The position numbers and the translations under genes are program-made. This document shows positions 1 to 23,882 of a stretch of 23,882 nt of DNA, piece after piece (positions within the stretch are counted from its first letter, which is position 1; each line of letters begins with the position of its first letter). The notes below the pieces were generated by a model. The model was not told where the DNA came from. It worked only from the letters and a program-made list of their open reading frames with translations, and made no database searches. The DNA is taken from IMG/VR virus record IMGVR_UViG_2585427765_000009, one strand, 5' to 3'. The stretch comes from a virus (taxonomy: Duplodnaviria > Heunggongvirae > Uroviricota > Caudoviricetes).

Positions 1-766
1 CCAGCTCCACTTCTGTCCGGTTTTTCCAGCTCTTACGGTGTATTACCTCCGCTTTGTAAAGGCCATTGATGCTCTCCGCCATCGCGTTGTCATACGAGTC
101 ACCAGTACTTCCTGTTGATGCCAGTAATCCGGCTTCCTTAAGCCGCTGTGTGTAGGCCAGCGATACATACTGAGAACCTTTATCACTGTGATGGACTGTG
201 CCGGACGGTTGACGGGCCCATAACGCCTGCTCCAGAGCATCCAGCACGAATGTCGTTTCCATAGACGATGAGACCCGCCACCCCACGATGTATCCGGCAA
301 ACACATCAATGATGAACGCCACATAGACGAAGCCCCGCCATGTGCTGACGTAAGTAAAATCAGCCACCCACAGCTGGTCAGGTCGTTCTGCCACGAACTG
401 ACGGTTTACGCGGTCGCCTGCGGCAACGGCTTTCCGGCTGATGGTCGTACGGACCTTTTTACCCCGGAGAACACCGGCAAGTCCCATAACCGCCATGAGA
501 CGTGCCACAGTGCATCTGGCCACTCTGATACCTTCCCGTAACAACTGACGCCAGACTTTACGCACACCGTACACCTGATGATTTTCATCGTATACGCGCT
601 GTATCTCTTTCTTCAGCCAGTCATCGCGCTGCGCACGGGCACTGCGTTTATCCGGATGATGTCGCTGTTGCTGACAGTGGTAATACGTTGACGGGGCAAT
701 ATGCAGTTCGCTGCATAGCGGTCCGACCCCGTACTGCTCACGCAGCTTATCCAGCAGTGGCATCAT
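1..766 (-). CDS. IS3-family transposase orfB (DDE catalytic domain), 3' end beyond window
   Basis: My translation from ATG at 766: MMPLLDKL...[31 protein letters not shown]...[11 protein letters not shown]; no stop before the window edge, so absent from the ORF track. Confidence 0.8.
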
Positions 767-1089
767 TTTTTCCAGAGGCGGTCGAACTCCGCCTTCGCAA
801 AATAAGCGGAAGCCTGGCGAAGGATATCGTTACTGCGGCGCAGTTCACGATTTTCACGTTCCAGCTCTTTCAGACGCTGACGTTCAGCGGTGGTGAGCCC
901 GCCATCACCGCCTCCGGTATCCCGCTCATGCTGGCGTACCCAGACACGCAGAGTCTCCGGTGTACAGCCAATCTTTGGGGCAATGGAACAAATTGCCGCC
1001 CACTGTGAGTCATATTCGCCCTGACTTTCCAGAACCATACGAATCGCTCTCTGACGGACTTCGGGGGAAAAACGAGTATTTTTAGTCAT
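763..1089 (-). CDS. IS3-family transposase orfA (helix-turn-helix / leucine zipper)
   Basis: 108 aa [22 protein letters not shown]...; SD AAGAGG upstream; stop overlaps orfB start. Confidence 0.85.
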
Positions 1090-1143
1090 CCTGTTTACCT
1101 CTTTCTCAGGGAGTTTAGTCTCCAGGATTCCCGGGGCGGTTCA

Positions 1144-17537: not shown

Positions 17538-18011
17538 ACAGCGAATCAGATCAAATAAAACGCACATTTGTTAACATTTACACAAAGTCTGCGTGGGATA
17601 TTCTGAAAGAATATCCATAATGTAGAGAGAATCTATTGAAGTGCATGGTGCCGGGTGCCTCCCGGTGAATTCAGTACCAGCACCTGAATCCGCGATTATC
17701 CCATATACCTACTGGCTGATTGCCCCTCCGCACAGGGGGATTCACCATGCCAGTTTCTTTTAACAAACTCCCCGCAAACCAGACAACAGTCAACCGCCTG
17801 AATTGTGAAGTATTTAAAAATTTCTCCCGCTAACTGATACCCGGCTAACAGTCTGGCGTTTTCTTTTTCAGCAACGGGAAAGCAACAACCACCACACCCG
17901 CCACCAGCACACCGTCAGCCAGCACTGACATTATCCGGCTGCTGCAATGCCATTCACAAAAACAGTAAGCAATCACTTTTTACCGTAACAGGTGATAATC
18001 CAGATATGTAT

Positions 18012-18475: not shown

Positions 18476-18552
18476 TGGCGCGCTGTACTGGATTCGAACT
18501 AGTGACCGATTGCTTAGAAGGCAATTGCTCTGTCCGGCTGAGCTAACAACGC
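18476..18552 (-). tRNA. tRNA-Arg, anticodon UCU
   Basis: 77 nt cloverleaf folded by hand: acceptor GCGTTGT/ACAGCGC, D-stem GCTC/GAGC, anticodon stem ATTGC/GCAAT, loop CTTCTAA, T-loop TTCGAAT, CCA encoded. Confidence 0.8.
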
Positions 18553-18652: not shown

Positions 18653-18728
18653 TGGTGGCCCTTGCTGGATTTGAACCAGCGACCTGGCGATTATGAGTCG
18701 CTCGCTCTCACCACTGAGCTAAAGGGCC
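18653..18728 (-). tRNA. tRNA-Ile2, anticodon CAU (lysidine type; software may call it tRNA-Met)
   Basis: 76 nt; near-identical to E. coli ileX as recalled; acceptor GGCCCTT/AAGGGCC, anticodon loop CTCATAA, T-arm GCTGG-TTCAAAT-CCAGC. Confidence 0.8.
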
Positions 18729-21406: not shown

Positions 21407-21769
21407 CGGTTGTCTCTGCTGGCGCAGCAGGTGCCAGTTGTTCAGGCTGGCGTATAAAGTATAAATAAACTGGTTCCAGTGTAAAGCCCCTACATTAATG
21501 GAATAAAAGTCAAACAACAGATTGTTGGGATAAACACAACGCTTATTATTAAAAGCGATTAGATAAATTAAATTTTAATGTTATGCAATTTTACCAGATC
21601 ACCATAACATCTCGTTTGAAACCACCGAAACAACAACCATATCAATATTGATTATGTTAAAGTGAGTAAATATGGAAAACAACAAATCTGCACATTACGC
21701 TCCTTTCTTATCTGTGATACTTTTTGTTTTATGCTGTGTGTGGGCATTATTTTTATAAAAATATTTACA

Positions 21770-21796
21770 GATAAAATAAACCCGCCGAAGCGGGTT
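21770..21796 (-). terminator. Predicted intrinsic terminator of the hok transcript
   Basis: Minus-strand AACCCGC-TTCG-GCGGGTT followed by TATTTTATCTG. Confidence 0.55.
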
Positions 21797-21864
21797 AAGT
21801 GCGGGTGCATTGAGGATGCCTGACACATCAGAGGTGGCGAGGGATTTCTCCCTCGCCTGGTCTC

Positions 21865-22020
21865 TTACTCCTCAGGTTCGTAAGCTGTGAAGACAGCGAC
21901 CTCCGTCTGGCCGGTTCGGATTCGTACCTCGCAGAGGTCTTTCCTCGTTACCAGTGCCGTCACTATGACGGTTAAACAGATGACGATCAGGGCGATTAAC
22001 ATCGCCTTTTGCTGCTTCAT
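21865..22020 (-). CDS. hok: Hok/Gef-family type I toxin (HokD/RelF-like)
   Basis: MKQQKAMLIALIVICLTVIVTALVTRKDLCEVRIRTGQTEVAVFTAYEPEE, near-identical to Gef/HokC as recalled; SD AAGGAGAAG; ORF-track start at 22077 is an in-frame upstream ATG. Confidence 0.9.
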   Translation of the reverse strand: MKQQKAMLIALIVICLTVIVTALVTRKDLCEVRIRTGQTEVAVFTAYEPEE

Positions 22021-22278
22021 AGCCTGCTTCTCCTTGCCTTTCGGCACGTAAGAGGCTAACCTAGATTTGCCGTTCATAGATTGAGCCTCAGATTAATGTT
22101 AAACGTCTTGCAGGACGCGTAATGTTAACTGGGGCTTTTCTCTATCTGCCTTTGGTGTTCATGCCCGAGGCAGATAGCCTCAAGCACCCGCAGTCATTCT
22201 ACTTAACTAAGATTTCCCCGCAAACCGTTTTTGTCCAGCACAATAAATATCCAACTAAACCAATGGAGTTCGCTGTAT

Positions 22279-22458
22279 TTACCGCCAGTATTCAATGCAC
22301 ATGACCGCCATGAACACCCCTAAAAAAAGGGCATTTATATATCCAAATATTAATATCAAAACATCAACTTTTTCCATATACCTTGCTGTGAAGATGATGG
22401 GCATACATGATACGAACAACCAGAACGCAACAAACAAAAACTGCAATGCGTTTTTCAT
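22279..22458 (-). CDS. Hypothetical small membrane protein (59 aa, two predicted TM helices)
   Basis: ATG 22458 with SD AGGAGG; MKNALQFLFVAFWLFVSCMPIIF...ILIFGYINALFLGVFMAVMCIEYWR; AT-rich. Confidence 0.45.
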   Translation of the reverse strand: MKNALQFLFVAFWLFVSCMPIIFTARYMEKVDVLILIFGYINALFLGVFMAVMCIEYWR

Positions 22459-22671
22459 TATTCCTCCTACAATCAATGCGCAATTACATTTAAACACACC
22501 TCAATTTGGCCGGACATATAAATATCTAAACTAGAAAAAATCACTTACATAGCGTTACAAACTCTTTAGTCTAAAGGTTCATCGTAAAACATTCCCCATA
22601 CTTATCAGTCCGTTCCGTGCCAGGTAGCTTATTGCCTTATCTGGCAACCTATATGAATCGCCACAGATAAT

Positions 22672-23484
22672 CTAGACACTTCCGAGCCGCTGATAATATT
22701 GTTTTTCGTATTCAGTTGGTGGCATATGATCACTCGAACCATGCCGACGCTTACTGTTATAAAACATTTCGATGTAATCAAAAATATCACCGCGAGCTTC
22801 TTCTCGCGTTCCGTAGATCTTTTTCTTTATCCGTTCACGTTTCAGTAACTGGAAAAAACTTTCTGCGACTGCGTTGTCATGACAGTTACCGCGACGGCTC
22901 ATACTGCCCTCCAGCCCGTGTGATTTCAGGAACGACTGCCACTCATAGCTTGTGTACTGACTGCCTTGATCAGAATGAACCAGCACCTGCTTTTGAGGAT
23001 TACGTCGCCACACGGCCATCAGAAGTGCATTCAGGACAATATCCTTTGTCATCCGGGGCTGCATTGACCAGCCAATAACTTTGCGCGAGAACAGGTCAAC
23101 AACCACAGCCAGATACAGCCAGCCTTCGTGAGTCCGGATGTAGGTGATGTCCGTTACCCAACGCTCATCCGGTGCTTCCGGGTTGAACTGCCGCTGGAGC
23201 CTGTTGGGCGTCACGATGCTGGTTTCACCCTTACGTGCCCGTGGGCTACGGTACCCGACCTGAGCCCTTATCCCGGCACGCTTCATCAGTCGCCAGACAC
23301 GGTTAACTCCGCACTGTTGTCCGGTATCCCGCAGGTCGAGGTGGATCTTGCGATAACCATAAACGCAACCCGACTCCAGCCAGAACTGCTTTATCAGCCC
23401 CGTCAGTCTCAGGTCAGCATGATGCCGCCGTGAATCCGGCTGCTGAAGCCAGGCGTAAAAACCACTCGGATGCACATCCAGCAC
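22672..23484 (-). CDS. IS3-family transposase orfB (DDE domain); true N-terminus supplied by frameshift fusion with orfA
   Basis: WVTDITYIRTHEGWLYLAVVVDLFSRKVIGW...HSDQGSQYTS...NAVAESFF motifs. Confidence 0.85.
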   Translation of the reverse strand: MLDVHPSGFYAWLQQPDSRRHHADLRLTGLIKQFWLESGCVYGYRKIHLDLRDTGQQCGVNRVWRLMKRAGIRAQVGYRSPRARKGETSIVTPNRLQRQFNPEAPDERWVTDITYIRTHEGWLYLAVVVDLFSRKVIGWSMQPRMTKDIVLNALLMAVWRRNPQKQVLVHSDQGSQYTSYEWQSFLKSHGLEGSMSRRGNCHDNAVAESFFQLLKRERIKKKIYGTREEARGDIFDYIEMFYNSKRRHGSSDHMPPTEYEKQYYQRLGSV

Positions 23485-23540
23485 CCGACAAAGCAGTCGG
23501 ACAGGCCAGCAATGGGTGTTGTCACGGATAAAGGCGTACC

Positions 23541-23819
23541 TCAGTCGGACAGCTTTGCGAAGTACGCCGCGGCTTTTTTTAATATGTCCCGTTCGTCGGT
23601 AACCCGCTTCAGCTCTTTCTGGAGGCGTCGGATCTCAGCCTGAGCGTCTGACTGGACTTTATTGGTTGAGGAATCCGGGCCATATGCCTTTATCCAGGCA
23701 TAAAGACTGTGGGTGGTGATACCGAGACGTGTTGCCACGCTGGAAACAGAATGGCCGCGATCAACAACCTGTTTTACCGCTTCAATTTTAAACTCTTCGG
23801 GATAACGCTTACCGCTCAT
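23541..23819 (-). CDS. IS3-family transposase orfA
   Basis: HTH region plus leucine-zipper-like C-terminus ending AAAYFAK; SD GAGAGGTG; ORF-track GTG at 23825 or ATG at 23819. Confidence 0.85.
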   Translation of the reverse strand: MSGKRYPEEFKIEAVKQVVDRGHSVSSVATRLGITTHSLYAWIKAYGPDSSTNKVQSDAQAEIRRLQKELKRVTDERDILKKAAAYFAKLSD

Positions 23820-23882
23820 GGGCACCTCTCTTTAAGTCATCTTAAATGACTCTGAGGTGTCTGTTAAACCCGTGGCGATTCA

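Follow-up and report, generated by a model that had tools for sequence, protein, structure and literature searches.

A hok-mok-sok type I cassette with a regulatory leader and a predicted Sok RNA in a defective lambdoid prophage at the Qin site of Escherichia coli

The hok/sok locus is a textbook type I toxin-antitoxin system. The stretch of viral DNA considered here (IMG/VR record IMGVR_UViG_2585427765_000009, 23,882 nucleotides, called the window below) encodes a 51-residue protein of the Hok/Gef type, and a preliminary description of its sequence remarked that no RelBE partner was visible and expected a Sok-like antisense RNA. The locus thus raises the question of whether the toxin gene stands by itself or belongs to a complete antisense-regulated cassette, and of what the lack of RelBE means. 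We conclude, with a probability of roughly 0.92, that the hok gene of the window belongs to an intact type I cassette, hok-mok-sok, of the HokD/HokW subtype. The lambdoid prophage that carries this cassette in its nin-like region is defective and occupies the Qin (rspB) site of E. coli. Both the kind of system and its details have been described before, and RefSeq already lists the gene as hokD; the window copy, unlike the K-12 reference hokD, keeps a complete regulatory leader and a predicted sok gene. The features of the cassette and its surroundings are collected in Table 1.

Table 1. Features of the cassette and its surroundings, in coordinates of the window.
Feature	Coordinates	Strand	Basis or remark
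IS3-family element	22654-23882	.	33-nt imperfect terminal inverted repeats, OrfA/OrfB transposase, programmed frameshift; adjoins rspB
Putative hok/mok promoter: -35 TTTGCG (22224-22219), 17-nt spacer, -10 TAGAAT (22201-22196)	22196..22224	-	read from sequence
Full-length hok (mok-hok) mRNA, ~411 nt, predicted	21779..22189	-	fold, similarity to 933W hokW cassette
tac, GGGUGCUUGAGG	22178..22189	-	pairs with fbi (full-length fold), with ucb (truncated fold)
ucb, anti-Shine-Dalgarno box for mok, AGCCCC	22131..22136	-	both folds
mok Shine-Dalgarno GAGG	22086..22089	-	8 nt upstream of ATG 22077
Hypervariable 23-nt block: mok start and first codons, Sok-target hairpin loop and upper stem, Sok 5' tail	22063..22085	.	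diversity in 71 unique cassettes
mok reading frame, 70 codons, in frame with hok, common stop codon	21865..22077	-	ORF list; layout that of annotated mokW of 933W
dcb, AGCCUC, closes Sok-target hairpin with mok SD region (truncated mRNA)	22052..22057	-	truncated fold
hok Shine-Dalgarno AAGGAG	22035-22030	-	9 nt before hok ATG
hok toxin gene (HokD type, 51 aa, MKQQKAMLIALIVICLTVIVTALVTRKDLCEVRIRTGQTEVAVFTAYEPEE)	21865..22020	-	ORF list, Pfam, identity to K-12 hokD, RefSeq
Tyr47 codon UAC within UACG motif	21880..21882	-	reported TadA A-to-I editing position in hok mRNAs
3' stem-loop directly after stop, GGCGAGGGA-GAAA-TCCCTCGCC	21836..21857	-	helix 15, 21 homologs
fbi, CCUCAAUGCACCC	21803..21815	-	pairs with tac in minimum-free-energy fold
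Intrinsic terminator of hok mRNA: 7-bp stem, 5 G-C pairs, then T-run	21779..21796	-	terminator scan
Sok promoter, predicted: -35 TTGCCT (22034-22039), 17-nt spacer, -10 TAACCT (22057-22062)	22034..22062	+	identical to 933W/Sp5
Predicted Sok-like RNA, ~71 nt: 5' tail, long terminator hairpin, GGGGCUUUU	~22069..22139	+	transferred from 933W sokW annotation

The assignment of the toxin itself is straightforward. The 70-aa product of the frame that ends with hok scores 81.6 bits against the Pfam profile HOK_GEF (PF01848; cut-off 22, E=3e-23) over profile positions 1-42 of 42, so that by the Pfam threshold the Hok product belongs to the family, as the preliminary description had proposed for the 51-aa reading frame with its strong Shine-Dalgarno sequence. 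An NCBIfam Hok subfamily model gave 48.5 bits, under its cut-off of 73, and the other NCBIfam Hok models also scored under their cut-offs; since the protein is identical to HokD and passes the Pfam threshold, we do not count these values against membership. In the alignment, the hok coding DNA is identical to hokD (relF) of E. coli K-12, and RefSeq labels the same stretch hokD (WP_000813254.1); this coding sequence is the only RefSeq feature at the locus, where mok and sok features are absent. A 601-nt query around hok had a 100% match in the E. coli strain E203449 chromosome, and a related stretch occurs in 4,723 of 5,426 complete E. coli genomes, at a median of two places per genome. According to a preprint (bioRxiv 10.1101/2025.08.07.668861), A-to-I editing by TadA turns a tyrosine of hok mRNAs into cysteine, and HokD is among the control peptides that had earlier been found toxic. 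The sequence TACGAA does not vary among 21 diverse hok homologs, and the UUACGAA motif (21879-21883) is kept in the window copy. Two further reading frames nearby are most likely spurious, namely a 54-aa frame on the plus strand (21887-22051), antisense to the hok coding sequence, and a 58-aa frame on the minus strand (21652-21828) with no Pfam match.

Upstream and downstream of the coding sequence, the elements of a hok regulatory mRNA are all present and conserved. The -10 region of the hok promoter is conserved among the aligned cassettes (entropy 0.34), and transcription probably starts at about 22189 +/- 3 nt, where the 5' end aligns to position 1 of the Rfam model RF01794; ucb is nearly invariant in an alignment of 21 sequences (A3). 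The in-frame ATG at 22077, earlier put forward as the start of an extended Mok-like product, opens a 70-aa reading frame arranged like mokW of phage 933W, and the terminator noted further down lies at 21796-21779, followed by a T-run. The hairpin described 3' of the stop codon is likewise present, although its limits are 21857-21836 and the coordinates first given, 21835-21856, were one base off; it corresponds to helix 15 of the alignment, which is paired in 97% of cells among the 21 homologs and shows compensatory changes. By analogy with the homologous stem-loop of plasmid R1, which has a 3'-protective role (PMC9841398), the window stem-loop should shield the processed (truncated) hok mRNA at its 3' end.

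The comparison with a hok/sok covariance model that had been suggested gave a full-length match: RF01794, named 'sok' in Rfam, aligns at 22189-22015 on the minus strand over the whole model (positions 1-157 of 157) and scores 110.1 bits, the gathering threshold being 59 (E=1.4e-24). This match lies on the hok-sense strand, begins with GGGUGCUUGAGG and stops at the hok AUG, and hence the model describes the hok leader and not the antisense RNA. We therefore rejected the match as a candidate antisense gene, sokW being annotated on the opposite strand, and we point out that automated annotation based on RF01794 would put the antitoxin on the wrong strand.

Folding with ViennaRNA predicts for this mRNA the switch that characterizes hok systems. 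The 412-nt full-length transcript has a minimum free energy of -173.6 kcal/mol (z=-9.3 vs shuffles) with its 5' and 3' ends paired, tac and fbi forming a 12-bp helix and ucb pairing with the mok Shine-Dalgarno region so that the mok Shine-Dalgarno sequence is sequestered. When the 3' end is cut back to the stem-loop at 21857-21836, the 362-nt fold contains a tac/ucb pairing and a hairpin between the mok Shine-Dalgarno region and dcb, which carries the mok AUG and in which the mok Shine-Dalgarno sequence sits. The first 30 nt of the mRNA fold into a hairpin of -18.8 kcal/mol with tac as its 5' arm, which would correspond to the metastable co-transcriptional structure of the nascent transcript. 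These three predicted folds agree with the R1 hok/sok model as summarised in PMC9841398, and a refolding of the window mRNA after 3' truncation is thus predicted.

On the pattern of R1 hok/sok and of the homologous hokW-sokW of prophage Sp5, from which we infer transcription, processing, toxicity and Sok action at the window locus, the cassette would work as follows. A weak promoter would yield a stable hok mRNA of ~411 nt, in which pairing of the 5' tac with the 3' fbi and masking of the mok Shine-Dalgarno sequence by ucb would allow neither translation nor Sok binding. The 3' end would then be trimmed slowly, as far as the stem-loop at 21857-21836, and fbi lost; tac would then pair with ucb, and the mok Shine-Dalgarno/dcb hairpin would form, making mok translatable and hok expressed via translational coupling, while the same hairpin would present the Sok target. 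A short-lived Sok RNA of ~71 nt, made constitutively from the opposite strand, would pair with this target, and RNase III would cleave the duplex. Once Sok synthesis stopped, Hok would be made, enter the inner membrane and depolarise or kill the cell.

The pairing on which the closed form depends is supported by comparison among genera. We gathered 53 hok loci from genome contigs of Escherichia, Shigella, Kluyvera, Citrobacter, Pseudocitrobacter, Photorhabdus, Pantoea and Erwinia, and an unbiased scan for the best 5'/3' complementarity recovers tac/fbi in most of them, as GGGUGC/GCACCC in Escherichia and as GGGCGC/GCGCCC in Photorhabdus and Pantoea. With the window's fold projected onto the untrimmed 21-sequence alignment A3, 82% of cells are paired, vs 39-46% when the partners are slid by 1-3 columns, and 44 pairs are changed on both sides, vs 18-31 with slid partners; the projected structure is the fold of one of the aligned sequences, the window's own, which inflates the paired percentages and affects the compensatory counts less. 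One tac/fbi pair (columns 82/484) is U-A in 14 of the 21 loci, C-G in the other 7 and broken in none. The tac/fbi pairing thus covaries across genera.

A Sok RNA had been expected on the plus strand across the hok leader, roughly at 22020-22140. Homology supports such an RNA, although its predicted extent is narrower, about 22069-22139, with a promoter at 22034-22062. The predicted promoter stretch is base-for-base identical, in the alignment, to the sokW promoter of 933W/Sp5, whose 'pro-less' mutation (primers YO-421/422) altered the -10 hexamer from TAACCT to GAGCCG and abolished protection against HokW (PMC8621323, Takada et al. 2021). The predicted RNA folds with -28 kcal/mol (z=-4.4) and leaves a single-stranded 5' tail of ~9 nt. 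The plus-strand promoter search that the preliminary description had proposed gave a divided answer: a generic sigma-70 scan of 21600-22400 missed both the hok and the Sok promoters, its sole match being an unrelated one at 21678-21651, yet the candidate identical to the sokW promoter is in place. The predicted Sok promoter matches just 7 of 12 consensus positions, which explains why the generic scan misses it, and since neither promoter was flagged, both were assigned by homology instead.

One part of the leader departs from the general conservation. Among 71 unique cassettes, pairwise diversity is 0.29 in the 23-nt block 22085-22063, 0.019 at the third positions of hok codons, 0.035-0.052 elsewhere in the leader and 0.072 in the 3' UTR. 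In the best 80 viral-contig loci, the 51-aa Hok is identical throughout, a tac-containing leader is present in all but ~3, and the leaders are nearly alike outside the block, which itself has at least 15 alleles, that of the window occurring in 6 of the 80; this sample is small and was chosen for its identical Hok protein. The Sok-target hairpin is kept in 8 of 8 main block alleles, at -13 to -15 kcal/mol and with different loops. Where cassettes share a genome, the copies mostly differ in allele: three genomes hold two, three and two block types, and one pair is of a single type. We propose, tentatively and at less than even odds, that diversifying change may be concentrated in this block and fix the specificity with which Sok recognises hok, so that HokD/HokW cassettes which are nearly alike elsewhere would belong, from prophage to prophage, to many mutually orthogonal alleles, at least 15 in the sample. 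Recombination or relaxed constraint, in place of diversified recognition, may also have produced such diversity. If the specificity reading is true, the Sok of one prophage could not cover the loss or silencing of another, and, if driven by selection, the block would add modestly to what is known of how type I systems in one cell are kept from cross-talk; a limited search of the literature returned no account of such a block for hok/sok.

What, then, does the lack of RelBE mean? The remark that no RelB/RelE-like frames flank hok was accurate: no relB or relE ORF lies within the window flanks, where the neighbours of hok are the IS3-family element and the hypothetical, DUF968, RusA and Q genes, and the relBE-hokD (relBEF) arrangement of K-12 is thus not found. 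RelBE is, however, a separate type II system and not the partner of Hok, so that its absence does not amount to a missing part, and our analysis corrects the idea that Hok needs RelBE. In K-12, relB-relE lies directly upstream of hokD. Identity between the window and K-12 begins ~17 nt upstream of the hok ATG and extends over the coding sequence, the 3' hairpin, fbi and the terminator; before this point comes relE in K-12 and the hok leader in the window. Because the identity starts just ~17 nt before the ATG, we read the K-12 relBE-hokD adjacency as a rearrangement that replaced the hok leader, and the absence of RelBE in the window as the mark of an intact, ancestral-looking state. A minority of other loci also has relE upstream, namely L028 in a Kluyvera genome and one or two of the 80 viral-contig loci, including L091 from IMG/VR; since in L028 and L091 relE is directly upstream, the relBE-hokD fusion is not peculiar to K-12. 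In another IMG/VR locus, L136, hokD also lacks the leader and has a different upstream sequence.

The surroundings of the cassette are those of a defective lambdoid prophage of E. coli. Along the hok strand the order is rspB, the IS3-family element, hokD, a hypothetical gene, DUF968, RusA and the antiterminator Q, followed by tRNA-Ile, tRNA-Arg, the lysis genes, terminase, head and tail genes and a tape-measure gene split by an IS. The prophage occupies the Qin (rspB) site, and the integrase, immunity and replication arm is gone beside the IS3-family element; in uninterrupted relatives (strain 205, an ST131 strain), DUF977, replication, repressor and dicB genes come left of 22653. The preliminary description had named sequence evidence of an inactivated leader as a finding that would count against its reading. 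Inactivation of the hok copy as in the K-12 loci, by the nearby IS or by truncation of the leader, was looked for and rejected: the leader elements are intact, and the IS ends at 22654, ~430 bp upstream of the hok -35. At this distance, and with homology to the uninterrupted genomes resuming at 22653, the cassette is untouched.

Several other features of this prophage were observed. A second, different IS3-family element interrupts the tail tape-measure gene (window 1-1100) and contains an ALIL frameshift pseudoknot at 692-808 on the minus strand (120 bits vs Rfam ALIL). The Rfam sRNA STnc100 matches 17587-17779 on the minus strand with 112.9 bits, between Q and the lysis genes and downstream of the prophage tRNA-Ile (18656-18728) and tRNA-Arg (18479-18552). 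Just upstream of the hok promoter, an unannotated small frame on the minus strand (22279-22458) has a strong AGGAGG Shine-Dalgarno sequence and would encode, from the ATG at 22458, a very hydrophobic protein of 59 aa (MKNALQFLFVAFWLFVSCMPIIF…CIEYWR); Pfam and NCBIfam gave no match for it, and its DNA is conserved in ~1,540 E. coli genomes.

An intact sequence does not guarantee activity, and the decay of the prophage brings in a first alternative, that the cassette looks intact and is nevertheless a silent relic like the chromosomal hok loci of K-12. The prophage has indeed lost int, immunity and replication arm beside one IS3-family element and has its tape-measure gene split by another, and chromosomal hokA, hokB and hokC showed no post-segregational killing in earlier tests, according to the preprint (bioRxiv 10.1101/2025.08.07.668861). 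We nevertheless consider a silent relic improbable. Every known regulatory element is intact and conserved, the predicted Sok promoter is identical to the functional one of sokW, and nearly all of the best 80 viral-contig copies retain the full leader. Moreover, an R1 cassette without Sok is lethal from a single chromosomal copy (PMC9841398), from which it follows that a cell can tolerate a hok gene with its leader intact only if Sok is functional.

If the intact hok-mok-sok cassette is functional, its role may be sought in phage release or in the maintenance and defence of the prophage segment. A contribution to lysis and phage release at prophage induction is suggested by the 92% identity to hokW-sokW of Sp5, which provides the sole direct experiment on a close homolog: after mitomycin C, sokW RNA vanishes and HokW appears in a RecA-dependent manner ~1 h before the endolysin, and without the hokW-sokW locus the phage yield is halved (PMC8621323). 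Intact relatives of the window prophage carry the cassette in the nin-like region upstream of Q, and these prophages could still be inducible. The window prophage, however, has no repressor, integrase or replication genes and a broken tape-measure gene, and the cassette lies elsewhere in 933W, at the far right end of the genome as opposed to the nin-like region. Since productive induction of the defective window prophage is impossible, a lysis-assist role is unlikely at this locus, and the induction-linked role of HokW may not apply to the window cassette.

The other possibility, which we likewise regard as rather doubtful, is that the cassette guards the prophage segment against loss, as an addiction or anti-deletion module, or that it serves as an abortive-infection defence set off by the shut-off of host transcription during phage infection. 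For R1 hok/sok, post-segregational killing and partial exclusion of T4 are on record (Pecota and Wood 1996, as relayed in PMC8621323 and PMC10305079), hok genes are ~4-fold enriched in prophages (bioRxiv 10.1101/2025.08.07.668861), and the Sok-recognition block differs between most co-resident copies, a pattern that addiction logic would favour because one Sok then cannot cover the loss of another. Against this, hok genes show no enrichment beside defence systems (bioRxiv 10.1101/2025.08.07.668861), the chromosomal loci tested gave no post-segregational killing, and for loci of the HokD/HokW type the argument is drawn by analogy from other systems. Perhaps the cassette survives as a selfish stabiliser; perhaps it has simply been inherited.

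Four known systems are closest to the window cassette. The plasmid R1 locus (hok/sok, or parB) has the same closed tac/fbi form, with ucb masking the mok Shine-Dalgarno sequence, 3' processing and the open tac/ucb form, as far as summarised in PMC9841398; there, Sok targets the mok translation initiation region and RNase III cleaves, a regulatory logic that the window cassette would share according to the predictions above. The R1 system lies on a plasmid whereas the window cassette lies in a prophage, the window Hok and R1 Hok are distantly related proteins (HokW and R1 Hok share 44% identity, PMC8621323), and the hairpin formed by the Sok terminator and the hok leader has in the window a ~16-nt insertion relative to the Rfam consensus. 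The chromosomal loci hokC (gef), hokA, hokB and hokE belong to the same Pfam family and have the same leader architecture; hokC-type loci of several Escherichia species align along the whole mRNA with tac and fbi kept, and hokC and other chromosomal loci show ~80% protein identity to the window Hok. These loci differ in their shorter Sok hairpin, without the 16-18-nt insertion, and in their location in the core chromosome and not in a prophage.

The other two are hokW and hokD. The hokW-mokW-sokW cassette of 933W/Sp5 is ~92% identical over ~430 nt that begin shortly before the hok promoter and reach fbi, and has the same layout (mok of 70 codons in frame with hok, Hok of 51 aa, and Sok, predicted in the window, of 71 nt), with Sok promoter, tac, fbi, ucb and dcb identical to those of the window. 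Experiments on HokW/sokW demonstrated toxicity, antitoxicity dependent on the Sok promoter, partial dependence on RNase III and Hfq, and inner-membrane localisation (PMC8621323). The two cassettes differ in the C-terminus of the toxin (…VFVDYESEK in HokW, …VFTAYEPEE in the window Hok), in the terminator and at 8 of 23 positions of the block containing the Sok 5' tail and target loop, which makes cross-recognition uncertain. The Qin hokD (relF) of K-12, for its part, has an identical coding sequence and a nearly identical 3' UTR (3' hairpin, fbi and terminator) and, like the window copy, lies at the prophage site close to rspB, ahead of DUF968 (ydfU) and Q (ydfT), but it is without a promoter of its own, tac, ucb, mok and sok, all of which, with sok as a prediction, the window copy has.
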